A stretch of 64,000 bases of DNA. It comes from Torpedo marmorata (Eukaryota). Below the pieces are notes generated by a model. It did no database searches, was not told where the DNA came from, and was given only the letters and a program-made list of their open reading frames with translations. Each line of letters opens with the position of its first letter. The first letter of the stretch is position 1. Positions 1,442 through 58,050 of this stretch are shown in pieces. A program made the position numbers and the translations under genes. The DNA is taken from assembly GCA_977017645.1 (NCBI GenBank), contig OZ360247.1, positions 12,028,001 through 12,092,000 of the forward strand. The letters run 5' to 3'.

Positions 1442-1549
1442 ATTGCTGACAATTTCCTGGTTTTTCTTGATACGTTCAAGCTCCGGGGTGCTGGCCACTG
1501 CACTGAAGCCTTTCCCTTTATTCTTTTCAAAATCTTCTTTGTATTGTAC
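1442..1549 (-). CDS. LASP1: LASP1-like exon 4 (second half of nebulin repeat 1 to start of repeat 2), [36 protein letters not shown]
   Basis: 108-bp phase 0/0 exon, acceptor ctctag and donor gtgagt. Peptide closely resembles recalled human LASP1 [36 protein letters not shown] and is closer to it than to NEBL/LASP2. Orthologue versus paralogue not resolved. Confidence 0.88.
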
Positions 1550-9324: not shown

Positions 9325-9328
9325 AAAT

Positions 9329-9352
9329 TGGGGGCTCGTCCTTGGATTTGAA
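9329..9352 (+). promoter_or_regulatory. Primer-binding site, tRNA-Pro
   Basis: TGGGGGCTCGTCC(TT)GGATTTGAA is complementary to the tRNA-Pro 3' end. Confidence 0.9.
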
Positions 9353-9456
9353 TCAAGATCCATCTTGGTAATTGAAGAAATCCCAGTCTGGTTTAAGACA
9401 TTCCTTTTGTAAAGCTAATTAAAAGCTAGTGTGTGTGTAACAAAAAACCAGCAACA

Positions 9457-11189
9457 ATGGATGAAGAAAATTTTTTGAAATCACCTGAACCTGATACTTT
9501 AAAAAAGGCGAAAAAGGAACAGTTAGTGGCTATAGCAACAGAGTTGGGCATTCCTTCTGTAAAACCATCAATGAAAAAGGCAGAGATTGGGAGAAAAATT
9601 GTCAAATACTATATAATAGGAAAAAAGTTTGAGGAGAGCATGTTAGAGCAGTTTCCCAAGGGTAAACCTTCTGAAAACATACAGTTGGAACTAAAGAAAT
9701 TGGAATTGGAACAAAAGAAATTGGAATTGGAGGTAGCCAGGGAACAAAAGAGATTAGACTTAGAGAGAGAGGAGAACATTAGGCAATATGAGCTGGAAAA
9801 GATTAAGTTGGAAAATGAGAGGAGACAAGAAGAGCACCAAGATCAAATTTGTGGTCCTGTTGAGAGGTTTTTGGCCAGTAGAAAAGTTAGGTTGGTTCCT
9901 CCATTTGAGGAGGCAGAAATAGATAAGTACTTCCAGCATTTTGAGAAGGTGGCTGTGAAATTAAAATGGCCACAAGACCAATGGTCTCTTCTGTTACAAA
10001 GTGTAATAAAAGGAAAAGTTCAGCAAGCTTATTCTACTCTTACCACGGAGCAAGCTGCTGATTATGAAACGGTGAAAAAGGCTATACTCCAGGCTTATGA
10101 GTTAGTTCCAGTGGCTTATAGACAGAAGTTTAGAAATTTAAAAAGATCAGCAACCCAATCTTACACAGAGTTTGCCTATGAAAAGGTTGTGTGTTTTGAC
10201 CGGTGGTGCACATCCAAGGCGGTAAACAATGATTACAATCAATTGAGAGAATTGATAATAATTGAGGAGATAAAAAGGTGTGTTCCTGAGGATATTAAGG
10301 CATATTTAGATGAAAAGGAGGTGAAAACTTGGCAAAATTCAGCTAAGTTAGCAGATGAATATGCTTTAACACACAAGCTAAAGTGGACGTCAGGCAGAAT
10401 TTTCCAAAAGGGCACTGTGGATAATCCCAAGCAAGTGGAAGGTAAATTTGGAAGTGGTGTTAAGGAAAGGGATGAAGGAAAGTGGAAAAGGGAAAACCCT
10501 TCAGGTCCCATTTGCCACTACTGTAGGAAGGCTGGTCATATGCTAGCAAGCTGTCCAGTGTTGAAAAAAAAGAGAGAAAAGGATGCAACACCTAATGCTT
10601 GTATTCAGAGTGAGAAGAGGCATAACACCCAGGAAGGAGATAAAGTTTCTGACAAGGTTAGGGATGTATTTAAACCTTTTGTGACTGATGGTTTTGTTTC
10701 AGTTAAGGCAGGATCAAAACAAGTTCCAGTGAAAATCTTGTGAGATACTGGAGCTGCTCAGTCACTTGTGTCAGATAGTGTCTTGGAATTTTGTGAAGCT
10801 ACTGACACCGGTGAAATGAATTTAATTAAAGGAATTGGGGGTGATGTTGAGTCCATTCCTTTGCACAAAATAGTGTTGGACTCAGCGTTGGTGGAAGGAT
10901 CTGTTATAATAGATCAGATTTGCCAGTAGAAGGAGTCTCACTGTTGCTAGGCAATGACGTGGCTGAGGGTAAAGTAGTTCCTGCAGTGCGAATGACCACT
11001 AAGCCAGTCATTGATAAGTCAGAGAAAGACTCTGATATTTATCCGGCATGTGCCATAACCAGGGCCATGTCTAAGAAAAATGTCACTTTAGAGAATGCAG
11101 TGGAAACTAAATTGGTGAAAGAAAAAGTGAGTGATAATCAAGAACACCTGGAAAAGCTTGAGCAATCTCATGTTACACCCATACACTGA
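9457..11189 (+). pseudogene. Gypsy gag (SCAN-like capsid, CCHC knuckle) and protease, disrupted
   Basis: CHYCRKAGHMLASC knuckle. Protease motif KIL*DTGA has a TGA where copy 2 reads KILRDTGA. Frameshift near 10915. Confidence 0.9.
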
Positions 11190-11311
11190 TAAGACACCTA
11201 AAAGCACAGATTTGTCACTATCCCGACAGGAGCTAATAGCAAGGCAAAAGGACGATCCTGATCTTGCTGAGGTGAGGGATAAGGTTCTCTCTGAAGAGGA
11301 GGTTTAAAAAG

Positions 11312-12460
11312 GTGCCAGTGGGTTATTATGAAAAAGATGGGGTGTTGATGAGAAAGTGGAGACCATGTGATGTTCCTGCCAATGAAGAATGGGCAGTAGT
11401 GCAGCAGGTTGTGATCCCTAAAGTATATAGGGATGCAATAATAACTTTGGCTCATGGCACACCCTTAGGTGAAGAAAACTATAAGGAAGATAATGAAACA
11501 ATTTTATTGGCCCAGTTTGAGAAGGGAGGTTGTAAGCTTTTGCCGGGCCTGTCACACTTGTCAGGTGGTGGGTAAACCTAATCAGGGTCCCCCGGTGGCA
11601 CCCTTGCAACCTATCCCTGCTTTCGGTGAGCCTTTCTCGAGAGTGATTGTGGACTGTGTTGGCCCATTGCCCAAAACCAAAGCGGGGAATGAGTATTTGT
11701 TAACAATTATGTGTGCAGCCACCAGATATCCAGAGGCCATTCCTCTGAGAAACATTAAAGCAAAAGCAATTGTAAAGGCTATAGTAAAGTTTTTCACCTT
11801 GGTAGGTTTGCCAAGGGAAATTCAATCAGATCAGGGCAGTAATTTCATGTCAGGCATTTTCCAACAAGTGGTTGATGGACTGGGAGTTAAACAGAATATA
11901 TCCTCTGCATACCATCCAGAAAGTCAAGGGGCCTTGGAGAGGTTCCATTCGACTTTGAAAAACATGATTAGAACCTATTGTTGTGAGAAGGAAAAGGATT
12001 GGGATGAGGGGGTTCATTTGTTGTTATTTGCAGCGAGGGAGTCTGTCCAAGAATCACTTGGTGTTCGTCCATTCGAGTTAGTTTTCAGACATGAGGTGAG
12101 AGGTCCTTTAAGATTATTAAAAGAACAGTGGATTAATAGTGATGTGCATTTAAATCTGTTAGATTATGTTTCCAAATTTAAGGATCGGTTGCATAGGGCT
12201 TGTGAGATGGCAAAGGAGAATTTAAAGGCCACTCAACAGAGAATGAAGGTTTGGTATGATCGAAAGGCCAAGATGAGAACTTTTAAACCTGGTGAGAACG
12301 TATTAGTTCTGTTTCCCATCCATTCAAATCCTCTTAGAGCTAGATTTTCAGGACCCTATAGAGTAGTCAAAGATTAATGATGTCACCTATGTCATAGAAA
12401 CACCTAATCGCAGACGAGACACACAGGTCTGTCATGTGAATATGATTAAGCCATATTTTG
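11312..12460 (+). pseudogene. Gypsy integrase, frameshifted
   Basis: HHCC remnant (CRACHTCQ), VIVDCVGP, IQSDQGSNF, SAYHPESQGALER and GPY motif. Confidence 0.92.
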
Positions 12461-12569
12461 AACAGGTGCCGCACAAAGAGACTGAACATTTACCAGAGGT
12501 GCTGGTTATTGATCAGGGTAAGGAGGAGACAGATAAAACCAGTTTCAGAGAGGGTCAGGGACACAGAAA

Positions 12570-13975
12570 TTGATAAACCCGAGGTTAGAAAATTCCATGA
12601 TTTTGTGCAATCTGGAGACAAAGTTGGCTCATCTGAAAACTTCAGAAAAGGAAGAGATGAGTCAGTTATTTTTAAAATTTATAAATTTATTTCCCGATGT
12701 GCCTCAGAAAATTTCCATCGCTTATCATGATGTGGATGTCGGAGATGCAAGACCGATAAAACAGCATCCCTATCGAATCAATGCGGAAAAGTGCAAACTG
12801 GTGGATCAGGAAATTGACTACATGGTAAAGAACAATATCATTCGAAAGTCTACTTCCAATTGGAGTTCCCCTTGTGTTTTAGTGCCTAAACCTGATGGAA
12901 CGGTTAGGTTTTGCACTGATTATAGGAAAGTAAATGCTGTAACAAAGACAGATGCTTATCCTATTCCTAGAATAGACGATTTTATAGACAAGGTGGGGAA
13001 GGCCAAATTTCTTACAAAAATTGACTTATTGAAAGGGTACTGGTGTGTTCCTTTGACAAAAAGGGCTAGGGAGATTTCTGCATTCGTAACACCTTTTGGG
13101 CTGTATGAGTATAATGTTATGCCTTTTGGCATGAAGAATGCTCCAGGAACATTTCAGAGAATGATTAATTCAGTAATTCAAGGGTTGAAAAACACAGGTG
13201 CTTACAATGATGATTTAATTGTAAGTAGTGACACCTGGGAAGAGCATGTCTTTGAGCTAAAACAATTGTTCGAACGACTGTCCAAAGCGAATCTCACAGT
13301 TAATTTAAGTAAAAGTGAGTTTGGACATGCTACTGTTATTCATCTGGGTTATGTAGAAGGACAGGGGCAGTTGGTGCCAGTAGAGGCAAAGGTAAGAAAA
13401 CTCTGAGGAGGTTCCTTGGAATGATTGGCTACTACCGCAAGTTCTGTAAAAACTTTGCAGATCTTGCGCTCCCTCTCACAAATTTGCTTAGAAAGAGAGA
13501 AAAATTTGTGTGGTCGACAGGTTTTCAGGAAGCATTTGTCAAAGTGAAAGCCATGTTATGCCACCAACCTGTGCTTAAGTCACCTAATTTAGAACAGCCG
13601 TTTTCTTTAGCCGTGGATGCCAGCGATGAAGCTGTGGGTGTGGTGCTGTTACAGAGGAAGAACGAAGAGGACATTGACCATCCGGTATCCTACTTCTCAA
13701 AGAAGTTCAATGATCATCAAAGGAATTATTCAACCATAGAAAAAGAGTTGTTAGCTCTTGTGTTGGCTCTACAACACTTTGATGTGTATATCTGTACAGC
13801 TCAAAAACCACTCATAGTGTATAATGACCATAATCCATTGGTTTTTCTTTGTAAAATGAAAAATAAGAATTGACGGTTGTTGAATTGGAGTCTAATTTTG
13901 CAATAATATGATTTAGTAATAATACATATAAAAGGGAAAGATAATGTAATTGCTGATTGTCTTTCCAGATGCTAA
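12570..13975 (+). pseudogene. Gypsy reverse transcriptase and RNase H, disrupted
   Basis: RFCTDYRKVN, MPFGMKNAP, YNDD at the YxDD site, AVDASDEAVG, YSTIEKELLA. Break near 13400 and a stop at 13871. Confidence 0.92.
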
Positions 13976-14872
13976 ACTTTATAAATGAAAATAGTTCATA
14001 TTTTGTGTTTGTGGATGAAAATTGTGGGTTTTGTTTATATTGTAACACCTCAATTTCCAAAATTTTGTTCTTGCAGACCAAAATTTTCTTTGTGGGTGGG
14101 AGGTGTTATGGACGGTGACTGACCATTTGGACTGCGGACGGTCAGCAGGAAGGATGAATGAAGTTTTTTGGAGTGCACACTGGGACCTGGTACTGAAAGA
14201 GTTAACTTGCCCAGGACTTCTTGTATTTACCGAGAGAGAGGCACCAGGGGGAGACAAACTGTGGAAAGAGATACTTGGTTGGACTTTTGAAAAAAGGCAG
14301 GTGAAGACCTCTGCAGGACGGCCTTAAAGTTCAGTCGTGGAAAACTGAATCAGTGGCAGTTTTGGAGTTGCAAAGGCGGGAGAACCCAGCAAAATCCAGG
14401 CTTGTGCATCCCAGAGAAAAATGCTGGGAGAAATGTACAGAGCCTCATGAATCAGCAAAATCCAGGCTTGTGCATCCCAGGGGAAAAGGATGGGAGAAAT
14501 ACAAGGCCTTGGTGATTCAGCAAAATCCTGAGTTGAAGGCAACTTTTGTGAAGAACAGGCGTGAGATCAGCGAGACAGGCTGTGAGATCCAAGTACACGG
14601 CTCAATCCTAAACGGATTTGGAGTCGCAATCCTTGTGAAACTACCAGAAGGGAAAGTCATCAGAGAAGAAAAGCAAGCCAAGCGTTCGTAAGCATAAACA
14701 GTCATTGTCTCTCTCTCCAACGTTCATTAAGAAGTCCTTCTTGCCAGCACACAGAGCTGAATTTGGACCCTGAACATAGAGAGTGAATTTTTGTGGACTG
14801 TATTTTGGGACTGACTTGTTTTTATGACTGACCTGGGTTTTTTTGGGGAAGGTTTTCCATTTTTACATGAGG

Positions 14873-17800
14873 TTCTGGATGGTACGCAGAGGATACAATC
14901 TGTTTAACTCCTAGTCCATCAACCACTTGTTGGAAAACGCCTGACATGAAATTACTGCCCTGATCTGATTGAATTTCCCTTGGCAAACCTACCAAGGTGA
15001 AAAACTTTACCATAGCCTTTACAATTGACTTTGCTTTTATGTTTCTCAGAGGAATGGCCTCTGGAAATCTGGTGGCTGCACACATAATTGTTAACAAATA
15101 CTCATTCCCCGCTTTGGTTTTGGGCAATGGGCCAACACAGTCCACAATTACTCTCGAGAAAGGCTCACTGAAAGCAGGGATAGGTTGCAAGGGTGCCACC
15201 AGGGGACCATGATTAGGTTTACCCACCACCTGACAAGTGTGACAGGCCCGGCAAAAGCTTACAACCTCCCTTCTTAAACTGGGCCAATTAAATTGTTTCA
15301 TTATCTTCCGTATAGTTTTCTTCACCCCAAGGTGACCACCTAAGGGTGTACTATGAGCCAAAGTTATTATTGCATCCCTATATACTTTAGGGATCACAAC
15401 CTGCTGCACTACTGCCCATTCTTCATTGGCAGGAACATCACGTGGTCTCCACTTTCTCATCAACACCCCATCTTTTTCATAATAACCTACTGGCACCTTT
15501 TTAATCTCCTCTTCAGAGAGAACCTTATCCCTCACCTCAACAAGATCAGGATCGTCCTTTTGCCTTGCTATTAACTCCTGTCGGGATAGTGACAAATCTG
15601 TGCCTTTAGGTGTCTTATCAGTGGATGGGTGTAACATTGGAGATAGCTCAACCTTTTCCAGGTTTTCTTGATTATCAGTGTCTTTTTCTTTTCCCAAGTT
15701 ATTTTCCACTGCCTTCTCTACAGTGACATTTTTCTTAGACATGGCCCTGGTTATGGCACATGCCGGATAAATATCAGAGTCTTTCTCTGACTCATCAATG
15801 ACTGGCTTAGTGGTCATTCGCACTGCAGGAACTACTTTACCCTTGGCCAAGTCAGTGCCTAACAACAGTGAGACTCCTTCTACTGGCAACTCTGATCTCA
15901 CTCCTATTATAACAGGTCCTTCCACCAAGTCTGAGTCCAACACTATTTTGTGCAAAGGAATGGACTCAACCTCACCACCAATTCCTTTAATTAAATTTAT
16001 GTCACCGGTGTCAGTAGCTTCACAAAATTCCAAGACACTATCTAACACAAGTGACTGAGCAGCTCCAGTATCTCGCAAGATTTTCACTGGAACTTGTTTT
16101 GATCCTGCCTTAACAAAAGGTTTAAATACATCTTTAACTTTGTCAGTAAATTTATCTCCTTCCTGGGTGTTATGCATCTTCTCACTCTGAATACAAGCAT
16201 TAGGTGTTGCATCCTTTTCTCTCTTCTTTTTCAACACTGGACAGCTTGCTAGCATATGACCAGCCTTCCTACAGTAGTGGCAAATGGGACCCGAATTGTT
16301 TTCCCTTTTCCACTTTCCTTCATCCCTTTCCTTAATACCACTTCCAAATTTACTTTCCACTTGCTTCTGATTATCCACAGTGACCTTTTGGAAAATTCTA
16401 CCTGACGTCCACTTTGGCTTGTGGGTTAAAGCATATTCATCTGCTAACTTAGCTGAATTTTGCCAAGTTTTCACCTCCTTTTCATCTAAGTATGCCTTAA
16501 TATCCTCAGGAACACACCTTTTTATCTCCTCGATTATTATCAATTCTCTCAATTGATTGCAATCATTGTTTACTTCCTTAGATGTGCACCACCTGTCAAA
16601 ACACACAACTTTTTCATAGGCAAACTCTGTATAAGATTGGGTTGCTGATCTTTTTAAATTTCTAAACTTCTGTCTATAAGCCTCTGGAACTAACTCATAA
16701 GCCTGGAGTATAGCCTTTTTCACCATTTCATAATCAGCAGCTTGTTCCGTGGTAAGAGTAGAATAAGCTTGCTGAGCTTTTCCTTTTATTACACTTTGTA
16801 ACATAAGAGACCATTGGTCTTGTGGCCATTTTAATTTCACAGCCACTTTCTCAAAATGTTGGAAGTACTTATCTATTTCTGCCTCCTCAAATGGAGGAAC
16901 GAACCTAACTTCTCTACTAGCCAAAAACCACTCAGCAGGATGACGAATTTGATCTTGGCGCTCTTCTTGTCTCCTCTCATTTTCCAACCTCATCTTTTCC
17001 AGCTCATATTTCCTATTTTTCTCCTCATTCTCATATCTCTTTTGTTCTCTGTCTATCTCCATGTCTAATCTCTTTCATTCTAATTCCATGTCCAATTTCT
17101 TTTGTTCCAATTCCAATTTCTTTATTTCCCTGTCTGCCTCTAATTTCTTTAGTTCCAACTGTATGTTTTCAGAAGGTTTACCCTTGGGAAACTGCTCTAA
17201 CATGCTCTCCTCAAACTTTTTTTCTTTTATATAGTATTTGACTATTTTTCTCCCAATCTCTGCCTATTTCATAGATGGTTTTACAGAAGCAATGCCCAAC
17301 TCTGTTGCTATAGCCACTAACTGTTCCTTTTTCGCCTTTTTTAAAGTATCAGCTTCAGGTGATTCCAAAAAATGTTCTACATCCATTGTTGCTGGTTTTT
17401 TGTTACACACACACTAGATTTTAATTAGCTTTACAAAAGGAATGCCTTAAACCAAACTGGGATTCCTTCAATTACCAAGATGGATTTTGATTCAAATCCC
17501 GCAACGAGCCCCCAATTTGTTACAAAATCAAACCAGCAACGACAGAAGACGCAATGCAAAAGGGGTAAAATTGAAATTACTATTTATTAAAGACAATTAA
17601 ACATATAATTTCACAACAATTAACCCCACTATAAACGTCTATAAACACTATTCTTATCTAAAAGGTGTGTGTGTGTGTGTAAAGCCCAGACCATTACAGT
17701 CTGTGCCCAACCCTTATGTAAAAATGGAAAAAAACTTTCCCCAAAAACCCCAGGTCAGTCATAAAAAACAAGTCAGTCAAAAAAAAAGGATAATACAGTC

Positions 17801-18417
17801 TACAAAATCCACTCTCTAAGTTCAGGCTTCAACTTCAGCTCTGTGTCTGGTAGAAGTACTTCTGAATGAACGTTGGAGAGAGACAATGACTGTTTATGCG
17901 TACAAATACTTGTTTTCTTCTCTGATGACGTCCCCTTCTTGTATGTTCATAAGGATTGCAAGTACCAGATCAGTATACCACTGATTTAGGCGTGTGCTTG
18001 AATCTCACAGCTAGTCTCGCTGATCTCACGCCTGTTCTCCACAGAAGTTGCTTTTTCTCAGAATTTCTCTCTGAGACAAGAGGCCATGTGCTCTTCTGCC
18101 AGTGATTTTCTCTGGCTTGCACAAGCCTGGATTTGGCTGTGTCCTGTAGCCTTTGCAACTTACAACTGTCTGCTTTTCCTGCAGAAATCTGCACCTGCTT
18201 TTTGCAAAATTGAAACAAATGTATCTTGTCCAGTCTGTCTCTCTCTGGTCTCTCTCTGTCTGGGTACACCAAGAGTGCAACAATGTATCTTGTTTGGGTA
18301 CACCAAGTAGCTGGGGAAGTTAACTCTTTCAGTACCTGGCCCCAGTGTATACTCCAAAAGACTTCATCCTTCCTGCTGACCGTCCGCAGTCCAAATGGTC
18401 AGTCATGGTCTATAACA
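14873..18417 (-). mobile_element. Gmr1-like Gypsy copy 2, inverted, truncated within integrase
   Basis: LTR 17518-18417, PBS 17491-17514, gag ATG at 17386 with early stops, then open gag-PR-IN 17062-14873 ending at SAYHPE. Confidence 0.95.
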
Positions 18418-18436
18418 TTTCACAGCCACTTTCTCA

Positions 18437-30065: not shown

Positions 30066-30780
30066 GTAGCTGAGGGGGCAACACTGGTGTGGAGGCTGAG
30101 GAACCCACTGGAAAAAACAAAGGGTTTGTTGGATGCCCTGCAATTTGGAGATACTTTCTCCAAAAGAGCATGGAGCTGGTCTGAGTCCAAGATGGCGGCG
30201 CCTGTGTTCGGCAGCGGTCTCGAGGGGTTGCAGACTCCAGGTGAGAAGCAGACTGGTGCAGGGCACCAGTAACGGAAACACCTCCCCCCCCACCGTTGAG
30301 AAGGAGAAGCCGAGGAGACGAACTCAAGGACGGTGACCACGGTGGTGGGCCAGCAAGGGGTTCTGCAGGTAAAGGGCACACACAGGCTGCGGGCAACTTG
30401 AGGTCAAAGGACACATGTCAGCTGCTGGAGACTGGCTCATGAGAACCAGGTATCGGAACCGGGATTCAAGAGGGTGCAGAGGGCTCTCGAAGGGCCCTGG
30501 GCGCTGAAGGCTTCCTCATTGTGTCAGAGGTTTGGATCTGGGCTCGGGTTGTCGATGGTTTGAACTGAACTGGAGTCTTGTGTGGCTGCAGAGGCCACGG
30601 GAGTGCTGGAGGCAAATCCACGGACACTGAGCGACTCTTGGAGGACTCTCTTTTGCTTTTCTTTCTCTGACTGTAAGGGGCGCTGGGCAAAGCTGATGGC
30701 GAATCTTTATCTGCCTCATGGCACACTGAAGGCAATTTCGTGTAATATTACATTTCTGTTTTATTACACAACAATAAATA
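30066..30780 (+). repeat. GC-rich non-autonomous retroposon
   Basis: caagatggcggcg, accaggtatcggaaccgggat, ggactctcttttgct core and LINE-like tail shared with 35385-36140. Confidence 0.7.
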
Positions 30781-33218: not shown

Positions 33219-33327
33219 CAATCTATCTCACTAATCATTCTAGAACAAACTTAAAAACTGGATTACACCTATTTCTAGATATTTTTGGAAGAAAGAAAAA
33301 GGAGGATTGGACGTCCCTGGATTAGAG

Positions 33328-34083
33328 CAGGGTTTCCTAAACAGGGTTCCGCGGAAGAAGTGACAGGGAGTAACAACGATCAATGGTTTCATAAACAGGG
33401 TTCCGCGGAAGAAATGACAGGGAGTAATAACGATCAATCTGTTTTTCTTTAAATTACTTTTTACCTCTGTCTTTAATTCAATTTGTTTCCGGGGGGAAGA
33501 CAAGATGGCGGCCGCGGGGGGGGGAGAAGGGGAGACGCGCGCGACCCTCCGCTGACGCTCACCTCGGCTGCTCATTTGCATAATACCCGCCCCTTCCCCC
33601 CCCACCGCTCCAATCGGTGCCCGGGCTCGGCCTGTCCGTCAAAGGGTCCGGCGGCAGGGTTCCGGACCAATTAGCAGGCGGAATGATAGGGGGGGGGGGA
33701 TTGTGACATCTCTTCTCTCCGCCCGCGCAGCCAATCACCGGGCCGCGGCCCCATTGTGACGTCGGTGGGAGGACAGACTCCCACCCACCTCGCCTGTCAA
33801 TCAACGGCCGGCGATTCTGGCGTGGCGGAGGAGGTGACGTCAGCAGTGGAATGGTCTTCTCTTGTCAGTCGCCGCCCGGACCAACTGCCGAGAGGACACC
33901 CCCCCCATTGTGACGTCGGAGGGCAACAAATGATTTCAACGTGGAGAATGGTGAGCTTATTTACTTTCTTACTCTGCTTGTGCATATACCAGGTCTTTTA
34001 AACTGTAATTGACGATTGAGGTTCCACGATTTCCAAGTGCTCCCCAAAAGGGTTCCGTGAGCTAAAATGTTTGGGAAGCCCTG
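33328..34083. mobile_element. Non-autonomous hAT element carrying a CpG-island promoter-like cargo
   Basis: TIRs CAGGGTTTCCTAAACA / TGTTTGGGAAGCCCTG (14 of 16 match), perfect 8-bp TSD GATTAGAG (33320-33327 and 34084-34091), subterminal gggttccg motifs. Confidence 0.88.
33488..33925 (-). promoter_or_regulatory. CpG-island-like promoter cluster with 5' splice donor
   Basis: YY1-like CAAGATGGCGGC at 33501, GAG|gtgagc donor at 33563, octamer ATTTGCAT at 33574, GC boxes, several CCAAT boxes, three TGACGTC CRE-like sites, high CpG density. Confidence 0.7.
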
Positions 34084-34909
34084 GATTAGAGGATTATGTG
34101 CACATTGGTTCAACTTAAACAGCAGTATGTTCATCAAATAAAATTCGGCTTAGTGACAATTAGTTCATTTTTCAAAACACCATTGAAAGATTTTTTAAAT
34201 CATTTTTTCCATATTTTACCAAACTTTATTTGACACAATGAAACTGTAAAACCCGTCAGTCCAATATCATTGGAATAGGACTTCAAAACACTGATTTTTT
34301 TTTTTCCCTTTGTGCTCTCAAGATTACAAGGGACAAGGAATACATACAATAAACCGGAGAAAAGGGTCTGCATTATCGTGGTTCTTCCCAATAATGGGGA
34401 GGGATGGAGGGGAAGCGACTTGCACACCGGTGCAAATTGTGCTGTACCCGTTGTACTGTGTCAGTGTAAGTTGGCAACAGAACCAATTGTGACAGATTGT
34501 AGGTTGGCAACTGAACCAATTATAGCATTTATGAAATGCGCCTGATTTCCCTCCGCTGAACAATGTGCAAAGAGCAACAAGTGACTTATTAATCCTTTCA
34601 CCACTTCTTATTTTCCTAGTCCAGCTTTTCACCCAGCCCCCTCCCGCCAGTGGTCTCCTCCCCTGCCTGATGCCCAAGTCCACCTCTCCCACCTTCAGTT
34701 GACTAGTATCCTATTAACTCGGCCCCTTCCCAGTCCTTCCCTCTCCCTACTCCTTTCCACACTTGCTATCTCTCCTTACCACCTTGGTCTCAAAAAGGAG
34801 CCAAGACCCAAAACATTGATTGTCCATTTCTCTCCATGGATGTGTCCTGACCTAATGAGCACCTCCAGCTTCTCATTGCTTGCTCGACGTAGTAATTTAA
34901 TTTATTTAA

Positions 34910-35147: not shown

Positions 35148-35384
35148 ATATTAATCGGTTTAATGTGATACAGGGCAGATTACAGACATGATCAGAACAG
35201 AATTAGAAAAGGTACAAGGAAAAATGAAAGCAAGACCTTTGTGGTTGGATATTGACAATATTGTACTAATGGTTAATTATTGACAGAGCTTCTGACTGCT
35301 TGCCATCAGATTCCTGAATGGACAATGAACCACAGTCACTGCCTTACTTTATCTTTTTGTGCACTATTCTTATTTATTTTGTAA

Positions 35385-36140
35385 GGAGCGGAGATACAGT
35401 GCTCCCGCGGGGTCCAGCTGCCCAGTCGACTGCCGTCGGTTCCGCACGGGCTTTGAGGGAGCCGACGGTGGTTTTATTTACGATCCCGCGACCGCGGGGT
35501 CTTCGCCCAAGATGGCAGCGCCTTTTAACCGGCAGCAGCCACGAGGGGCTGCAGAGTCCGGGGAAGCGGAGGACTGGAGCAGGGCACCAGAGGACGGGAA
35601 GATCACCCCCCCCCGTCTGAAAAGGAGAAGCGGAGGGGACGACCCACGGGATGGTGACCACGGCGGCGGACCGGTGAGGGGCTCTGAGGCTGAAGGACCA
35701 GTGCATGCGGCGGGCTGCTGGCGACTCGAGGCGAGGAACCCGCGGAGGCTGTGGGCTGCTGTCGGGGGACTCACCCCGGGCTGCGGACTGCCGGAGGCTG
35801 GCTCGAACTGGCTGGAGGAGTACCAGGTATCGGAACCGGGATGCGAGGGCGTGCCGAGGGCGCCCTGACCGTGTTGGAGGTTCGGATCTGGAGCTCGGAT
35901 TGCCATGGTTTGGACTGGACTCTGTGTGGCTGCAGAAGCGATGGAGGCGAATTTACGGACACTCGGTGGCTCTGGGGGGACTCTCTTTTGCTTCTCTTTC
36001 TCTGACTGTAAGGAATGTTAGAGGCGCTTAGGCAATTTCTGCCGGTGGCGAATCTGTCTGCCTTGCAGCAGGCAAAAAGAAATTTCATGGAATATGACAC
36101 TGTCTTATTACTATGACAATAAATTGAATCTTGAATCTTG
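35385..36140 (+). repeat. GC-rich non-autonomous retroposon, most CpG-rich copy
   Basis: Shares core with the 30066 and 6430 copies. Ends aataaattgaatcttgaatcttg. Sits inside a Rex-type tail. Confidence 0.7.
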
Positions 36141-36710
36141 AATAAATGTTTGCACTGTGATGCTGCCGCAAAACAACGAATTCCGGTGACACGTTCATGG
36201 CAATAAATTCTGATTCTGATACATCTAAACCAAGTGGATGTGCTGATCAGATAAATGGATGAGCATCTCCAAGACTCAGACTTGTGCATTGCTTTTCAGA
36301 CAATTCAACTGGATTCACACAAGCAGATCTGACCTGGATGTGCGCCCCCTTTATCTCTTTCATGGGCACGTGGAGGAAACAAGCGAGTAGGAGTCTTGAA
36401 AAATCCACCGTGTGTATTTGTTCCCTCCCCACTTTCTACCAAGGACATACCACTGCCAACGATCAGTGTAGGCGCACAAAGCAATGGGCCAGCAGGAGCA
36501 GGATAGCGGGGGCGAGACTTGACGGGGTGCTCCTGGAACCAGAGGTGCGTCGATCAGCCTGTGCTTCTGGCAACTGGGCAGATCAGCCATAGAAGTACAC
36601 TGCCCCTCACTCAACCTGTGCTGGTAAACCTTACATTAGTAACTCAAGCAGCAACCTGGACCCAATTGCTGGGCAATTTGCGTGGGTTAATATTAATAAC
36701 ATAGCAACAT

Positions 36711-39861: not shown

Positions 39862-41268
39862 GCAAGCCTACACAGGCAAGACCCCTCATCTCTTCCTCCG
39901 TTATATCAACGCCAACATCGGGGCTGCCTCATGCACCCGCGATGAGCTTGTCAACTTCCACCCCGATCTCAAACTCACCTGGTCCATCTCCGATAACACT
40001 CTCCCCTTCCTGGATCTCTCTGTCTCCATCTCGGGAGACAAGCTTTCCACCGACATTTACTACAAACCCTCCAACTCCCACAACTATCTGGACTACACTT
40101 CCTCACACCCTGTCCCCTGCAAGGATTCCATCCCCTTCTCTCAATTTCTCCGTCTCCGCCGCATCTGTTCCCAAGATGAGGTCTTCCAGTCCAGATCTTC
40201 TGAAATGTCTGCCTTCTTCCACAAACGTGGCTTCCCCTCCACCACCATCAACTCAGCCCTCACCCTCATCTCCTCCATTTCCCGCTCATCTGCCCTGGCC
40301 CCCTCTGCCCCCAGGCGCAACAAACATAGAATCCCCCTCATCCTCACCTACCACCCCACCAGCATCTGCATCCAACACATTTTCCGCCGGAATTTCCGGC
40401 ACTTACTACAGGATCCCATCACCAGACACAGTTTTCCTTCTCCTCCCCTCTCGGCCTTCCGCAGGGACCGCTCCCTCCGCGATTCCCTCGTGCACTCATC
40501 CCTCCCCACCCACCGCACCCCCGGCACCTTCCCCTGTGCCCGCAGGAGGTGCAACACCTGCGCCCACACCTCCCCCCTCACCACGGTCCGGGCCCCAAAC
40601 AGGCCTTTCAAGTGAAACTACACTTCACTTGTACATCCAGAGAACTTATTTACTGCATCCGGTGCTCCCTTTGTGGCTTTCTCTACATCGGAGAGACCGG
40701 TCGTAGATTGGGAGATCGCTTTGCTGAGCACCTCCTCTCCGTCCACAACAACAGCGACCTCCCGGTAGCCAGCCATTTCAATTCCGAGTCACACTCCCAC
40801 ACTCACAGGTCTGTCCATGGCCTTATGTACTATACCACCCAGACTACCCGCAAATTGGAGGAACAACATCTCATATTCCGTCTCGGCACTCTCCAGCCAG
40901 ATGCCATTAACATTGACTTTTCTGCTTTCCACTAAACCTGCTTGTCTTTTCCTTCCCCTCCCCCTCACCTGTCCTTCCTGTTTTTTTTCCACCCACCCAG
41001 CCATCCCTCCTCCCCCTCTTTGCTGCTGTCCCCTCCCTCCTTTCTCCACCTATCATCTCCTGCCTTTGCCAACCCCCCCTCTTCCCCCCCACACTCTTTT
41101 GTTCTGCCAGCATTTTCTCATACTTTGATGAAGGGCTCAAGCCCGAAACGTCGGTTATGTATTTCTACCTTTGCTACATAAAAGACACTGTTTGACCTGC
41201 TGAGTTTTTCCAGCATTTGTGTTTTTTACTTCAACCACGGTGTCTACAGATTTTTGTGTTTTACTTTA
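39862..41268 (+). mobile_element. Penelope-like element, 5'-truncated (RT C-terminus, GIY-YIG endonuclease, pLTR)
   Basis: PFLDLSV...DIYYKP...HP...IPFSQFLRLRRICS, then IYCIRCSLCGFLYIGETGRRLGDRFAEH. pLTR carries a hammerhead-like motif. Confidence 0.9.
41119..41159 (+). ncRNA. Minimal hammerhead ribozyme-like motif
   Basis: CATACT-TTGATGA-A-GGGC TCAA GCCC-GAAAC-GTC-GGTTATG: UGAUGA and GAAA cores, 4-bp helix II, palindromic ACGT helix III. U replaces the usual C at core position 3. Confidence 0.6.
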
Positions 41269-46471: not shown

Positions 46472-46556
46472 TTGACTCTGCAACTTGCTTTGTTTCTTCA
46501 GACGCAGGTTTTCCGGAGTGTCTGCCACAGCGGTGAACGAAGATTTTGGGTAGTGC
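46472..46556 (-). CDS. LASP1: LASP1-like exon 3 (end of LIM linker, start of nebulin repeat 1), [28 protein letters not shown]
   Basis: 85-bp exon, acceptor ttttgcccag, donor gtgagt, phase 2 in and phase 0 out, so it joins 1442-1549 in frame. Matches recalled LASP1/LASP2 [28 protein letters not shown]. Confidence 0.9.
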
Positions 46557-49552: not shown

Positions 49553-50941
49553 ATGGTAGTGGGTCAAAGATACTGTGTGCTGGATGGAAAAAAAAAATTT
49601 TGAGGTCTGTTTAAGCAATGGTCCCAGGCGACTCAATCAACCTCATAGACTGCCCATTAGGGACAAGTTATAGTGGCCAATTAATTGACCAATCTGCACA
49701 TCTTTGCAATGTGCAGGAAATCTATTGGGTGACAGGGAGAACATGAAAATTCCCTGCACACAAGCACCGGAGGTCAGGATTGAACCGGGTACAGTGACTT
49801 CAATCCAACAAATAGTCACTTGGAGGCTAGGTGAGATATCCGTTCATGACGCGTTTCAATTGATTTACTAACAAGTCCAATAGGTTCAAAAACTTTATTT
49901 ACACTCGATGACTTGTAGCAATCTTCAATGACTTAAATATCTTCTTTAACGAAATATAAACAATTCTTGATAACGATGCTTAATAACGATTCTTTCTAAC
50001 ACTCATTTAAACGATTCCTTTAAACGATTCTTTAAACTTCCTTTAAACGGTCAATGAAAGTTATGCCGATCTCACTCACCCTCCTCTCGGTCGCCATATT
50101 CTTATACTTCTTCTCTGATTCGCGCATACTCAACGCGCATACTCCACCGCGCATGCTGCACTCTCTTCCCCACTGTGCATGCTCCAGCCACTTCCCCACT
50201 GCGCATGCGCCCGTCGGCACTCCCGTGCATGCGCAGAGTACTCAATAGGCCTAGCACGGCCTACTAATCTCCGTAAGTCCTCCGAAACCCGCTGGGCCCA
50301 TCAGACCGTCGCGATGAAGGTAAGTAACCAAGCCTATGGCTCTTACACCGGCCCCTAATTATTATAACGAGACGCAATGTCTTAAATAATAATTACACAA
50401 TCAATTACAAATAACAATAACCATATAACATTCAAACAATATACAAACCTTCTTCCTTCTTTCTTCTCAAGACCAGAGTTTACCATAACTCTGGATCAAT
50501 AAAAGTCTGTAACCTGTGTAGTATACAACAACAAAATAAAGTCAGTTTGTATTTATCAAAGTTCCTTTATCTCCAGAATCTTGGAGTTAAAACGTCGACC
50601 AGTAAACCTCAAATCTTCCTCAGACAAAATAGATAGTTTTTTCTTTTGAATTTAACACGAGGTACTTCTTCAGCATGTCGTTTCACTTTCTTCCTTTCTT
50701 CAGCATTCCACTTTTCATATGAAGAATTTAAACTCTTAGAACCAGAATTTGAATATTTATCTGATCCTCTCGATTTTAATAAACGAGTCTCTTTAACCAC
50801 TCTGGTTTCTATTGCCTTTTCCTGCAATTCCAAATCCAATTTTGCAACTTTCAATTCAGTCTCAGTTCCTTCCGAGAAATTAATAACTTGATCTGAAGTG
50901 AAAATATCATGTGATACATTGGTACTTCTATTGTCAATCCT

Positions 50942-51250
50942 GCTGAGGTAAACTTGAAATATTTGAATTTCTTCATCTTGCTTGTTACATTGCTGCAATG
51001 CAATATCACTTTCTTTCTGCATTGTTAATAACTGAACCTTCAATTTACATTCTTGATTGTTTTCTATAATCAACTGTTTTGTGTTATTAATCAATAACTT
51101 GTTGTCTTTCAAAATATGAATCTATTCCTCCAACATTTTACATCTTAATAATGCTGAATCTCTTTCTTCAATAACTGTATTTATTTCTTCAGCAGTCATT
51201 CTTTTCTTCCGCTTTCTGACTTTGCGAATTTTACTTACAATTAAATCTTT
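50942..51250 (-). pseudogene. Captured MIPOL1-like coiled-coil segment within the BEL element
   Basis: RMTAEEINTVIEERDSALLRCKMLEE*...ENNQECKLKVQLLTMQ...EEIQIFQVYLS versus recalled MIPOL1 RITAEEMSALIEERDAALSKCKRLEQE...ENNQERALKAKLLSMQ...EEIQTLRVYYS. Confidence 0.75.
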
Positions 51251-51639
51251 CTGATTACTTTTTTCATGATTATCCAATATTTCCAATTCCCCTTTCAACA
51301 TTTTGTTCTCTGAATTCAATTGCATTAAATTATCATTCACATTCTTCTTTATTCCATCAGCACAATTTTCTGCCTCTGATTCAATTCCACATGAATAATC
51401 ATTAGTATTATTTGCAACATCTTCTAATACTTCATTTTTATCCATTTCTGATGAAAATAATTCCTTCAATGTTGTTTTAAATACCTTTGATTTATTTTCA
51501 CATTGATCCATTTTCTTTTCTTCAAAAGTGATTTTCTTATTCACAGTCTTTTGCTCTTCCCTTAACTCATCAACTTTCACAACCGAAATCCTGTTAATAT
51601 TTATCGCTAACTGTTCCTGTGCAATATCATTGTTTCTTT

Positions 51640-54287
51640 CCAATGGTCCATTGATTGTCCAACCAAGCTTGGTTCTATCAGCGTAAAGTCCATTCCCTCT
51701 ACTCCGTATTACTTCTAGTGGTTCCAAAATCTGAACCAATCAGCATTTCTATCTCAGAGTTAACTTCAGGTAAATAATCCTTCCACAGATAAGACAAATG
51801 ATGGAAATCATTTTGATGAGGAATGTTTCCTTCATGCACAGGCATAGTCTTCTGAATATATAAACTTGGAAGATCACAAAAATTTTTGTCATCCAATCTA
51901 GCAACCTCTAAGCCTGAAACAATGCTGGTTTCAACGACCTTTTCTTGTCCCATGGTTTTCAACATAATTCTTGACCTTCTTCCTTGAATATTAAGTTTGT
52001 TCATTAGTCCTTCCGTGCAAAAAGATGCAGTGCTACCTGGGTCGAGAAATGCATATATATGTACTGTTGCATCCCCTTTCTTGGTCTTGACTTATACAGG
52101 CACTATTGAAAGTTTGCAGTTATCCACACCGGCCCCGGTAAGACCACTTGTCTCAACCGAGGTTATAACATTGTTTTCTGTTGTTTCCTTTGTTTCTGTT
52201 TGCTCCTTTTCCAATTCCTTCTTTCTTTGATGGATATGTAACATTCTAGGATGTTTCAAATTGCATATGTTACAGTTAAGTTGCTTCTTGCAGTTTTTAC
52301 TGATGTGTCCTTTACACAGACAGCTAAAACATACTCCATTTTCCTTTAAGAAAGCAATCTTCTCATTATGTTCCTTCTTTTCCAACCGTAAACACATTTC
52401 CAAAGCATGTCCACAACTCTTCTCATTAGTCAAACTTTCCTTTTCCTTATTTACTTTATCCTTTTCTTTATTTATAACTGACACATTAGTAGCAAAAGTA
52501 CTCCTTTTCAATTTCAGACAAGGCTGTGAGTTAGACCTCCTTACATCTTTGCTCCCCATTGAATTGTTTCTGGTATTTTCATATATTGGATCTGTTTCAA
52601 TGTAGACCTGTCGTTCAAGAAAATTTACCAAATCCTTTAAGGTAGCTCTTCGACCGTAATTTCCTTGTAAATCACAAGCCAAATTTCTCCATCTATCCCA
52701 CAACTTGTAAGGTAATTTTTCTAAGATGATTCGCATATTACCAGGCACTTCAAGCTCACGAATATTATCGATATCTTCCATGACATTACAACATCCTCTT
52801 AAAAATAGAGTATATGCTTGTAGAGCCTTTACATCATTCTGTTTTATTGATGTCCATTTAAGAGCTTTATCCATATAAGCTAAAGCAATTCGATGCTTGT
52901 TGCCAAAATGTTGTTCTAGTAAAGACTTAGCTCTGTCTCATCCTCTTTCTGAGGACATATGTTGACAACTCTTTACAAGTTCTCTTGGCTGTCCCTTTGT
53001 GAACATTTCCAAATAATAAAGACATTCATCAGGGTCTTGGCATTTATTTTCAATATTGCGTCTAAAAGATTTCATGAACGCTTGGTACTGAAGTGGATCA
53101 CCATCAAAAGTTTGAATCTCTTTCTTGGGCATAGAAGAGAGAGACTGTAACTGAATCAATGATGCAGCAATTTCATTTTGTCTTCCATTGGGTGATAACA
53201 CATTGCTCTGTTCACCACCTCTTGTTACAGGTAATGTAACTGGAAACCTCACTGGTGTAGTTTCTCCTGTATTTCTGAAGCTTGACTCGAATGCCAAGGG
53301 ATCTGCAGCGTTTGACCGAACCCAAGCCGCAGCTTTGTCTTCGGATGTTACCACTGGTACATGTGACTCGATAACACCATGCTCTTGAAGCATTTGTCCT
53401 TGTATTTGCAAGTCTTGTACCCTTGGTATTAAAATATCTACCCTTTTGGTTGGTTTCTTTTCCTGTGGCTCTTTTTTAAAATATAACTTCTTATCATCGC
53501 ACACTTTAGATAATTTACTCCGAGCACCAGATACCATTGAGCCTTCTAGTACCTCTTTTTTTGCCTTGGCAATAATAATGTTTGCTTCCAGCTCCTGCTG
53601 CTCCTTTCTCTGCCTTAGCTGCTCCTTCTCTTGCCTTAGCTGCTCCTTCTCTTGCCTTAGCTGCTCCTCCTTTTGCCTTAGCTGCTCCTCCTTTTGCCTT
53701 AGCTGCTCCTCCTGTTGTTCTAAAATATGTTTATCCTTGTTTTTTGTTGCGCAAGAAGAGTGGCCAAGTCAACTTCAACCTTTGTACATGACGATGCAGA
53801 ACTTGAAGTACGAGTAACTCTGGAGCTCGAACCAGAACTTCGTTTGCTTCTCCTGCTTTCAACATTCGAGACACTGTCACATGCTTGTATTTCATCCTGC
53901 AGGTCAGATGTTGTCTTCTTATTTACCTCCTTCACCAATTCGAATCGTACATACTTTGCATCTTCATCCTCTTCGTTTTCTTCATCATTTGGTGACACAA
54001 TTTCAGCCATTTCCACATTGCTGTCTTCTTGTTCAGTCGTTGTCTTTTGCAATGTCTTCATTCCCATCAACCAAAGCCGCCTGTTCTTCCATTGCCAGCT
54101 TCAGCCTTGCAATGAGAACCCTTTTATTTCCACTTGTATCTAGTTTCAGTCGCTTCAATTCTTCTTTGAGATCCACAACCTTCATGTCTTCAATACATTG
54201 GTCCTCAACAGCAACATCAGCGGCTGCTGCAGCCATTTTACTCGTCTTGTTCCACTGTCCTTCACTAGCCAAATCAACAGTCCCCAA
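51640..54287 (-). pseudogene. BEL/Pao gag-protease with N-terminal SAP-like motif, frameshifted
   Basis: MKVVDLKEELKRLKLDTSGNKRVLIARL (SAP-like), CFSCLCKGHISKNC, CNICNLKHPRMLH, YAFLDPGSTASF. Confidence 0.88.
53590..53712 (-). repeat. 21-bp tandem repeat encoding EQLRQ(K/E)(E/K) heptads in gag
   Basis: tgccttagctgctcc unit repeated 5-6 times. Confidence 0.85.
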
Positions 54288-54861
54288 TGGACCAGTGGCA
54301 GCAAATCCAATCTGTGTTCAAACTTTCCAAAAATACACAGAAGGAGTCCACAGACTTATGCCAACCACTTCAGATGACTGTAATGTGCTGCTATTCACAA
54401 GCGAGCTTCCACCACAGCATCCGTCAATAATATCGCTGATTTTCAAGAAATGTTTTTTCCAACGTATTTATAGGACACTTTACTATAAGATTTGAAGCTC
54501 TATATTCCTCTCTGGTTGTTACTCATGGCAGATGGATGTGGATTACAAACTGCCCCTAACTCGAGGCATATCCAAGATGGCCACCATCTTATTTTAAATA
54601 TCAGTCCAAAGCACAGAGAGATTATTCTATCTTCTTTACTTCAATTTTCTGTTCCAAACAATAAACTTTCATTGACTAACCATATAGTGATTTCAATCCA
54701 ACAAATAGTCACTTGGAGGCGAGGTGAGATATCCGTTCATGACGCCTTTCAATTAATTTACTAACAAGTCCAATAGGTTCAAAAACTTTATTTACACACG
54801 ATGACTTGTCGCAATCTTCAATGACTTAAATATCTTCTTTAACGAAATATAAACAATTCTT

Positions 54862-57800
54862 TTTTTTTTTTCAAAACAATCATTTATTTTCTTAATTCCT
54901 TTTTGAAACCAAATTTTAAATAGTTGATTATTTTTTATTTATTTTTTTTTTAATTTTTATTTAGTTTTTAAAATCACAAAATACATAGTCAAAAATAATA
55001 TATTATTCAAAATACATGTGATATATTTACCATCCCCCCTTCCCTCCCTCCCCTCCCCAGCCCTCCCACACTATTCTAATAAAGAGAAAAAAAGAATATA
55101 TAGAAATGTTAGTTAAAAGGAAAGAAATAGAATGAGAAATAAAGTTAAGAGAGTTAGTATGAGGAGAAAACTATTTCAGACTAACTCTATTTGTATATGG
55201 AGGTTACTTTTGTCAGCGGTACTAACTTTTAGAGAATTAATTCATACCCATAATTCTCATATATGGGCTCCAAATTTTCAAAAAGAAATGATATTTATCT
55301 CGTAAATTATACGTAATTTTTTCCAGTGGTATACAAGAACGTAACTCTGCATGTAATCTATCTAAATTCAAATCTAAATCTGATTTCCAAGTAATAGCAA
55401 TACATTTTTTTGAAATAGCTAACACAATTCGTAAAAATTCTATTTGGTACATATTTAATCTATTTCTAATACTAATTTTTTTAATATCTCCAAATAAAAA
55501 TATCATAGGATCCATTGGAATCATAATATTAAAAATTCTATCTAAAAAATCTTTGACTTTAGACCAAAAATTTTTAATTTTCAAACATGACCATGTACAA
55601 TGTACAAAAGAACCTATTTCATCTTTACATCTAAAACACATATCTGACAATGCCGGATTGAATTTCTTTAATTTTTTGGGTGTTATATATAATTGATGAA
55701 AAAAGTTATACTGTACTAATCTATATCTAACATTAATAATCTTAGTCATACTCAATTTACACAATTCTTTCCAGTGTTGTTCATCTATATTAGTATTTAG
55801 ATCTGATTCCCAATTTAATCTAGATTTATGCAATCCTACTTTAGGTATCTTTTTCTGAAATAATTTATACATTTGCGATATAAATTTATTGACATTTCCA
55901 TTAGTAATTAATAACTCTAACCCATCCTGTCTAGGAGATATTAATTGATTCCCTAATTTCTCAACTAAAAATCCTTTAACTTGATAATAAGCCAAAATTG
56001 TATTATCCATTATTCCAAATTTTTCTTTCAATCTAGAAAAAGTAACAAATCTTCCTGCCTCAAAACAATCTTTAATCTTCTTAATTCCTTTTTGATACCA
56101 TAATTTTAAAAATTGATTATCCATAGAAAATGGTAATAATAAATTCTGATATAATGGCATATTTAAAGAAATTGATCCTTTTCGCCCTATTTCATTATCT
56201 AATTGATTCCAAATCTCTAATAAATGTCTAATAATCGGTGACTTTTTCTTTTTAATCAATAATAATTTAGAATTCCATTTATAAATAATATCTTCCTTAT
56301 TTCTTTCTCCTATATTACTTAATTCTATATTAATCCAAGCCGTGTTTTTAGTTAAATCAAATAATTCATTTATAAATTTTAATTGTGCTGCCTTATAATA
56401 ATATTGAAAATTAGGAAGTTGTAATCCACCCATTTCATATTCCCAAGTTAATTTATCCATACTTACTCTTGCCAGTTTTCCTTTCCATAAAAACTTTCTA
56501 ATAATAATTTTTAAATCTTTAAAAAATTTTTGAGGAATACCAAAAGGTATAGATTGAAAAAGATATTGAACTCTTGGAAAAATATTCATTTTAATACAGT
56601 TCACTCTTCCTATTAAAGTTATAGGTAAATCTTTCCAATTATCCAAATCCTTCTTTATTTTCTGAAATAAAGGTATGTAATTTAATTTATATAAATTTTC
56701 TAACTTTGTATCCACTTTAACTCCCAAATATTTAATAGCTTCTTTAGCCCATTTAAATTTTGTAACTTCTTTACATTTAGTATAGTCTCCTTGAGATAAA
56801 GCCATTATCTCACTTTTATCCGAATTTATTTTATATCCAGATATTTCACCATAATCCCTCAATATTTTATCTAATTGTTGAAGTGATTCAATAGACTTTG
56901 TCATATATATTAATACATCATCTGCAAACAAACTAATTTTATGCTCTTCTGCACCTACTTTTATCCCTTTTATATTCATATCTTTCCTAATCATTTCCGC
57001 CAACGGTTCTATTGCCAATACAAATAAGGCAGGTGACAATGGACATCCTTGTCTTGTTGACCGTGTCAAAGAAAATTTAGATGATATTTGACCATTTGTA
57101 ATTACTTTAGCTGTAGGTTCCTTATATATAGTTTTAATCCAATTTATAAACGTATTTCCAAATCCATATTTCTCTAAAACCTTAAATAAAAACTTCCACT
57201 CTAACCTATCAAATGCTTTTTCTGCATCTAATGCTATCACTAACGGTAAATCCTGTTTCTTCTTTTGTAAATTAATCAAACTTATTAATCTTGCTATATT
57301 ATCCTTTGAATATCTATTTTTAATAAATCCTGCTTGATCTGGATGTATTAAAAATGGTAAAAACTTAGCTAGTCTATTTGTCAAGATTTTCGCCATTAAT
57401 TTATAATCTACATTTAACAATGATATAGGTCTATACGATTCAGTTTTCAATACATCTCTATCCTTCTTTGGTATAACTGTAATAACAGCATTTAAAAAAG
57501 TTTTCGGTTTAACTGAGTTTCCTTTATTTGAGTCAATACTTCCATATATATAGGTATCAATAAATCTTTAAACTTCTTATAAAACTCTACAGGAAATCCA
57601 TCATCACCAGGAGATTTACCACTATTCAATGATGATAAAGCTTCACCTACTTCTCTCATTGTAATTGGTAGATCTAACAAATCTCTATTAGAACTATTTA
57701 ATTTGGGCAACATAATTTTAGATAAAAAATCGTCAATTTTTACAACATCTTGACTCATTTGTGAAGTATATAAATTTTGATAATATTCTTTAAAAGAATT

Positions 57801-58050
57801 GTTTATTTCTTGAGGTTTATAAGTTATATCTCCATTACTTTTCTTTATAGCATTTATAGTTTTAGAAACTTGTTCTTTCTTTAATTGCCATGCTAAAACT
57901 TTATGTGCTCTTTCTCCCAATTCATAATATCTTTGCTTTGTTCTACCAATTAATTTTTCCATTTTTCGTGTTTGTAATATATTATAATGTAATTTTTTCC
58001 CCATTAAACGTTGTCTCTTAAGAATTGTTTTGTTTCTTTGAAAATCTTTT
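54862..58050 (-). mobile_element. L1-clade LINE, 5'-truncated, inserted in the BEL 5' LTR
   Basis: ORF2 pieces 57492-58050 and 55237-57450 (YRPISLLN, DAEKAFD, RQGCPLSP, FADD, CFRC...HCTWSC). Poly(A) tail and 16-bp TSD aatataaacaattctt (54846-54861 and 58051-58066). Confidence 0.95.

Follow-up and report, generated by a model that had tools for sequence, protein, structure and literature searches.

An intronic Buster-type hAT element of Torpedo marmorata with a replaced, promoter-like interior belongs to a multicopy family that also carries a captured ZNHIT3 first exon

A 64,000-nucleotide stretch of the Torpedo marmorata genome (contig OZ360247.1, forward strand, positions 12,028,001 to 12,092,000; hereafter the window) harbors a short GC-rich segment with promoter-like motifs enclosed by the ends of a DNA transposon. 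The question raised by this locus is whether a hAT transposon captured the promoter and first exon of a host gene and now acts as a mobile promoter able to start internal transcripts in introns, as proposed in a sequence-only reading of this DNA. The present analysis inclines, somewhat on the probable side of even, toward a Buster hAT that has lost its own promoter and transposase gene in favour of a promoter-like insert derived from a host gene's 5' end, which exists in many copies and is likely methylated and silent at this site. This reading builds on the ends and the target site duplication (TSD) of the element, its parent, the exchange of its interior, its presence in many copies, later deletions, CpG decay and the capture of the ZNHIT3 5' end in the same family.

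The element spans 33328-34083 (756 bp), and its terminal 16-mers form inverted repeats (TIRs) with 14 of 16 bases paired. The hAT TIRs and the perfect 8-bp TSD reported earlier were verified, together with their coordinates. The element is built as follows.

33320..33327, plus strand: left copy of the TSD, GATTAGAG, 8 bp, with TA at positions 4-5
33328..33489, plus strand: left arm, common to the autonomous Buster parent, with the TIR at 33328-33343
33490..33921, no strand assigned: GC-rich insert, termed cargo A, missing from transposase-bearing copies
33922..34083, plus strand: right arm, common to the parent, where it follows the transposase stop codon on the 3' side, with the TIR at 34068-34083
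34084..34091, plus strand: right copy of the TSD, GATTAGAG, a perfect match to the left copy

The left arm of this copy contains a 54-bp tandem duplication (33331-33438) that was present in none of the aligned copies. Cargo A is 432 nt long in this copy as against 722-750 nt in full copies, about 300 nt having been lost between internal repeats, plus a transposase remnant. The five bases preceding the left TSD (33315-33319) are the same as the last five bases of the right TIR, giving an apparent direct repeat of 13 bp; no left end matching this repeat was found in the window, and the likeness is probably due to chance. The element is a non-autonomous Buster-type hAT with a replaced interior, located in an intron of a LASP1-type gene on the minus strand. 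The name LASP1 and the LIM and SH3 labels are presumed from the translated sequence and the order of domains; only the nebulin match was obtained from Pfam. The two host exons that bracket the element are given below.

46472..46556, minus strand: host exon on the upstream side of the element, encoding the first nebulin-type repeat of the LASP1-type gene
1442..1549, minus strand: following host exon detected on the downstream side, matching Pfam Nebulin (E 9.8e-7) and starting in phase 0

A LIM-type exon is present upstream of the window and an SH3-type exon downstream, also placing the host gene on the minus strand; the element accordingly has the same sense as its host, as had been stated. 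It lies between two nebulin exons that are 45 kb apart, and no further exon was detected in this interval by Pfam analysis of 150 of the 210 frames of at least 75 aa along with motif scans. Searching PDB with the host exon gave no useful information.

Cargo A had been described as the only promoter-like CpG island of the window. That description did not hold, as three regions passed a test with a 500-bp window, GC content of at least 0.55 and an observed/expected ratio of at least 0.65: the region at 35251-36200 is richer than the element (62 vs 53 CpGs), and the one at 40051-40950 is borderline. The island at 35251-36200 is a dispersed repeat, partially copied at 30178-30779 and 79-325. It has a YY1-like start and a 3' tail of short repeats, and is probably a derivative of a non-LTR retroelement. 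The window also contains two inverted, ~90% identical SCAN-domain gypsy-type elements at 8348-18424 (SCAN, zinc knuckle, integrase, RT and RNase H) and, on the minus strand at 50600-58100, an AT-rich retroelement region with SAP, aspartyl-protease-like and 776-aa RT frames.

All the motifs reported earlier for the insert (CRE-like, CCAAT, GC boxes, octamer, splice donor and YY1) were located at their reported positions, and a DECA motif absent from that report was added. The factor names attached to them, including the YY1 label, are putative. Those tracked across 47 other copies, and those with a bearing on the origin of the insert, are listed here.

33502..33511, plus strand: YY1-type motif AAGATGGCGG, intact in 27 of 47 other copies
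33557..33565, minus strand: splice-donor-like site, last exonic base 33563, GT retained in 42 of 47 other copies
33574..33581, plus strand: octamer ATTTGCAT, intact in 19 of 47 other copies and read as ATTTGCAC in 16 of 47
33587..33921, no strand assigned: what is left of a degenerate array built from CCAAT, GC-box, TGACG and TGTCAATC modules
33794..33803, minus strand: perfect DECA motif TGATTGACAG, a Pbx/Prep site according to the available part of PMC6023610
33835..33842, no strand assigned: full CRE palindrome, at the centre of a 20-29-nt stretch resembling the promoter of the parent

CRE half sites are present at 33757 and 33911, CCAAT at 33610, 33667 and 33731, and GC boxes on the minus strand at 33587, 33719 and 33872. 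Read on the minus strand, the YY1-type motif follows the donor at a distance of ~50 nt. The octamer is altered in 28 of the 47 copies. The units of the array are 70-78% alike, and its internal deletion of ~300 nt maps to the repeat at 33749-33769 and 33903-33923. A degenerate internal array of this kind is expected more of a transposon promoter than of a host one. A histone-type promoter, presumably suggested by the set of octamer, CCAAT and CRE, was also considered as an origin. Individually, the motifs are commonplace in the window, since AGGTGAG occurs 11 times on the minus strand and 10 times on the plus strand of the 64 kb, the octamer five times and the YY1 10-mer twice. The promoter motifs and the splice-donor-like site are both contained within the element, which is the layout of a mobile promoter.

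The nature of the interior was addressed by comparison with transposase-bearing relatives. Some copies of the family retain the last transposase codons on the plus strand, and a pattern for the transposase C-terminus had 63 matches in the genome, 20 of which were opened with long flanks. All 20 loci aligned to the element only at bases 1-166 and 595-756; the interior bases 167-594 were matched by BLAST in none of them, the lack of homology expected of a Pack-TIR interior. Copies retaining the transposase start codon have a different, AT-richer promoter of ~180 nt. One parent copy is 2,882 bp long with a perfect TSD and a 425-aa ORF containing a BED finger; the closest named relatives of this ORF are ZBED5-like (up to 64% identity), and the Buster placement of the parent rests on these best named matches rather than on a tree. 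ZBED5 corresponds to Buster1 (PMC3606216, in the part available). That the cargo might simply be the native transposase promoter had been named beforehand as one outcome that would refute a capture; because the transposase-bearing relatives share only the two arms (20/20), this is not the case at the loci opened.

The other check proposed earlier, a search for further TIR-flanked copies of the cargo, was positive. As a lower bound counted among the loci examined, 78 distinct copies of the donor/octamer core of the insert were found, 76 of them with the left arm at a distance of 260 bp or less; of the remaining two, one is split by an insertion and the other is found at a locus edge. First-look candidates in the 6.2-Gb genome numbered 1,843 for the whole element and 173 for the insert at 33495-33760 alone, 40 being scored in each case. 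Among the loci examined, 99 distinct TIR pairs were recognized, 55 of which are flanked by a perfect TSD and 84 by a TSD matching at 7 or more of 8 positions, so the ends of the element are defined beyond chance. TA is found at positions 4-5 in 52 of the 55 perfect TSDs, and the Buster consensus is an 8-bp nnnTAnnn (PMC3517528, in the part available). The same chimeric structure is thus present at several loci with differing TSDs, as in a multicopy Pack-TIR. The element is a deleted member of a multicopy family, a point missed by the sequence-only reading.

Several variants of the family were seen. Four near-identical copies of subfamily C with the same truncation (L158-L161) lie on two contigs, G000:C69 and C70, which suggests segmental duplication or haplotype duplicates of the assembly, and copy counts may be slightly inflated by such duplicates. 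In subfamilies of ~1.4 and 1.95 kb (L089:1790-2655 and L152:790-2374), the start of cargo A is joined to other foreign segments, namely B (866 nt, 3,337 first-look candidates) and X (~700 nt). A terminus of segment B resembles the end of a probable third hAT, and a 120-aa frame in insert B showed one weak, unrelated plant match and no Pfam match, giving no evidence of coding. Two loci (L013:1890-2600 and L027) share an extra 750-nt insert within cargo A, with no Pfam match in two frames. A nested MITE of ~540 nt with a palindromic interior, present in many copies (L173, L175, L176, L181, L182, L183 and L187), sits at a TA of the left arm and was amplified along with the Buster copies.

Different interiors between the same ends were also encountered from the left side. 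From a total of 372 left-end matches, 19 plus-strand places spread over the first 100 in the list were opened; nine contained the parent promoter, one the start of cargo A, and others had different interiors. Two of the 19 carried an ATG-initiated zf-HIT exon followed by a splice donor and a GC-rich intron, one of the two being internally deleted. In the intact copy (L186), this first exon lies within Buster ends and matched the zf-HIT family of Pfam with an E value of 3.7e-7; ZNHIT3 was the best match in a PDB search, but at an E value of 0.23. The ZNHIT3 insert gave 827 first-look candidates. Thirty of these loci were fetched: Buster ends enclose the insert in 10, and the other 20 are members of a second hAT family. 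The Buster copies mostly begin with the first bases of cargo A. A search for ZNHIT3_C returned a single genomic locus, and an exon 1 region with an 82% match to the insert over 342 bp (E 6e-93) is located 13.5 kb upstream of it. This donor (L235:6948-7267) has no TIR nearby and is followed downstream by exon 2, as expected of a TIR-free parental locus. From the TIR-free match, the exon 2 and the copies in both hAT families, it follows that one hAT captured and amplified a ZNHIT3 fragment comprising the 5' UTR, the first exon and the beginning of the intron, which was later carried by another hAT. The second hAT-like family (L194:1339-2173 and 19 further loci) is 835 bp long, with TIRs of its own and an 8-bp TSD in the copy read, and carries the ZNHIT3 fragment along with ~380 nt of other sequence. 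This 835-bp element is also nested into the Buster family.

Capture of a host promoter and exon 1 therefore stands for the sister insert within the same ends; for cargo A, the donor was not found. Likewise, the term Pack-type hAT is apt insofar as the interior is foreign (absent from 20/20 transposase-bearing loci); the parental host locus of cargo A was not recovered by searches that also missed the known ZNHIT3 donor. Pack-type capture of host 5' ends with multicopy spread is observed in the family and would by extension apply to cargo A.

The BLASTN-type donor check suggested earlier was pursued by six routes, none of which led to a TIR-free locus for cargo A. An exact CpG-rich 35-mer of the insert occurs at two places in the genome, both family copies, one being the present copy. 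In a DNA search with the cargo only, the best 30 of 40 scored places were fetched and all had the left arm; one further place from this search proved to be a family copy as well. A pattern excluding the junction on the YY1 side matched 13 distinct places, 12 of them family members and one an unrelated 17-bp match, and the right-junction pattern had no match. The exclusion pattern on the donor side matched six places, four of them family copies and two judged to be so from the printed match. BLAST of the insert against ~300 kb of window neighbours plus the ZNHIT3 region, and against the parent loci, gave no alignment. This blank weighs little because the same searches missed the real ZNHIT3 donor, which did not rank among the 30 loci fetched for its own insert. 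One candidate donor (L125, G000:C100) was rejected, its intron sharing only a 17-bp YY1-type stretch with the insert. This locus is the 5' end of a gene that, judged from its translation, is probably HCFC1-like, with a C-rich minisatellite in intron 1. An origin from the 5' end of a LINE was likewise considered: the G-run and YY1 start of the insert presumably resemble L1, and no copy examined runs on into a retroelement ORF.

Under the preferred reading, in which a Buster hAT acquired its interior from the 5' end of a host gene, a break in a parent copy would have been repaired from an ectopic CpG-island template, either directly or via another Pack-hAT. The repair may have proceeded by gap filling or template switching, the capture models put forward in PMC8277862, in the part available. 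As to microhomology at the capture junctions, a G-run coincides with the GGG of the parent at the left junction of the insert. The composite would then have been moved in trans by the parent transposase, its spread being evident from the distinct TSDs. The CpG loss suggests that the copies were subsequently methylated in the germ line and drifted neutrally. The orientation in the same sense as the host gene would be a coin toss, without adaptation.

A serious though rather improbable alternative is that the insert was the promoter of another, older transposon, such as a related hAT or the 5' region of a retroelement, which was tandemly expanded and swapped into Buster ends. The parent promoter contains the same kinds of motifs in the same order and on the same strand as the insert (YY1-type, CRE and CCAAT). 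In 3 of 12 same-strand comparisons, a CRE-centred alignment of 20-29 nt between the insert and the parent promoter beat 200 of 200 shuffles; as the shuffles do not keep the CRE, this match is inflated and may reflect a shared motif rather than descent, and the interior had no BLAST match in the 20 parent loci. The modular array is in agreement with an older transposon, as is the tendency of Buster ends to pick up transposons, namely the second hAT family, the probable third hAT end and the palindromic MITE. Against such an origin, no TIR remnant is present at either insert junction, and none of the 78 insert cores was shown to lie outside Buster arms (76 with the arm, one interrupted and one at a locus edge).

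The methylation history of the insert was assessed from CpG decay. In the proximal insert of 47 copies, which were chosen for likeness to this copy so that the rates may be biased, 411 of 1,560 CpG cells read TG or CA (26%). This copy has 5 of 34 CpGs so changed, and 8 of 58 over the whole element. At 14-15%, its loss is at the low end of the per-copy range of 11-32%; such a value would allow for a part-time lack of methylation. The loss over the whole element is below the family rate without reaching significance (P 0.08) and above its own rate of non-CpG transitions (P 0.006), loss before insertion being indistinguishable here from loss afterwards. The true ZNHIT3 promoter lost 1 of 22 CpGs as compared to 183 of 665 cells in its 30 copies, the promoter standing further from the copies at other sites (7/130). 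Divergence was the same in motif columns (77/1,958) and non-motif columns (229/5,853), both at 3.9% (P 0.95). The CpG protection and motif constraint of a functional CpG-island promoter were therefore not observed, this single copy being borderline. Both ATGs preceding the donor would splice in phase 1 to the phase-0 host exon, with a stop after 11-13 codons. These observations point to methylated, neutrally drifting DNA in the copies. The proposed mobile promoter starting internal transcripts finds no support in the CpG decay, the unconstrained motifs and the out-of-frame splice; judged from the sequence, this copy is likely a silent passenger in the intron, and the element is probably inert at this site.

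A bolder view, which we hold to be unlikely, is that hATs of this genome, in the manner of plant Pack-MULEs and bat HelibatN3, repeatedly capture housekeeping CpG-island 5' ends with promoter, first exon and splice donor, swap them between families by nesting and deletion, and scatter them in hundreds, promoter cargo being favoured for keeping the donor site open to the transposase, and that some copies, including this one, fire as alternative promoters splicing into host genes. Narrower, and still less probable in our estimate, is the view that this copy is a working alternative promoter whose minus-strand transcripts are spliced from 33563 into the downstream host exons. This copy retains every motif as well as the GT, holds one of the only two occurrences of the exact CpG-rich 35-mer, has lost fewer CpGs than most copies and lies in the same sense as the host gene, and HelibatN3 of bats offers a precedent (PMC4778049, in the part available). 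Its CpG transitions are nonetheless above background, the array has lost ~300 nt, both ATGs are out of frame with an early stop, the motifs are unconstrained across copies, and the bat precedent itself yielded only three transcripts starting within the insert. That the element is a plain internal-deletion derivative with the native transposase promoter as its GC-rich interior is very improbable: the interior does occupy the promoter position, 5' of a transposase remnant in some copies, but copies with the transposase start codon carry the different 180-nt promoter and the interior was found in 0 of the 20 transposase-end loci (20 of 63 opened), so that some rare autonomous subfamily carrying it may still exist.

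Taken by itself, the insertion into the LASP1-type intron is probably of little importance; the interest lies in the family and the ZNHIT3 trace. Multicopy gene-capturing TIR transposons have so far been very rare in animals, as far as the available part of PMC8277862 indicates, and in this genome promoter-like inserts, one of them traced to the 5' end of ZNHIT3, occur in hAT subfamilies at tens to hundreds of copies. With one promoter sequence dispersed over numerous sites and the parental locus as an unmethylated control, these subfamilies form a natural panel for asking if a CpG-island sequence is by itself protected from methylation, and if a non-autonomous element spreads more readily once it has captured promoter DNA. 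For genome annotation, such copies mimic orphan CpG-island promoters and zf-HIT exons.

The closest known systems differ in scale and element type. In the portion of the animal Pack-TIR survey available (Tan et al., 2021; PMC8277862), four multicopy cases are described in 100 genomes, Pack-hAT-N8_XT having three copies. Similar to the present element, this frog case has hAT ends, a foreign interior (a 5' UTR fragment) and a distinct TSD for each copy; here, in contrast, one insert is present in at least 78 copies, the ZNHIT3 insert has 827 first-look candidates and occurs in two hAT families, and the inserts are composite. The definition of a Pack-TIR in that survey requires a parental locus, which was found here for the ZNHIT3 insert and not for cargo A. 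The element works like a Pack-TIR, full membership hinging on the donor, which was demonstrated only for the sister insert. In the part of the literature covered, no vertebrate Pack-hAT carrying promoters at high copy number is described, though such cases may be included in the supplementary data of PMC8277862. With the Busters described in the available parts of PMC3517528 and PMC3606216, the family shares the 8-bp nnnTAnnn TSD, short TIRs and, in the parent, a ZBED5-like transposase with a BED finger; ordinary Buster MITEs are deletion derivatives, whereas the interior of this element was replaced. Rice Pack-MULEs are likewise TIR elements that duplicate GC-rich gene pieces, the unexpressed ones being methylated, but they belong to the Mutator superfamily of plants (PMC5861414, in the part available) and the present family to Buster hATs in a 6.2-Gb vertebrate genome. 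HelibatN3 similarly represents a cassette of promoter, first exon and splice donor amplified by a DNA transposon. According to the accessible part of PMC4778049, it contains the NUBPL promoter, first codons and splice donor, traps exons, and is the start of three endogenous transcripts; it is a rolling-circle element with demonstrated exon trapping, unlike the TIR- and TSD-bearing hAT described here, for which exon trapping is a proposed activity. What is new relative to these cases is the scale and the type of element, that is, hAT-borne promoter-like inserts in tens to hundreds of copies that move between families. By analogy, the family may be regarded as the hAT counterpart of Pack-MULEs and HelibatN3.
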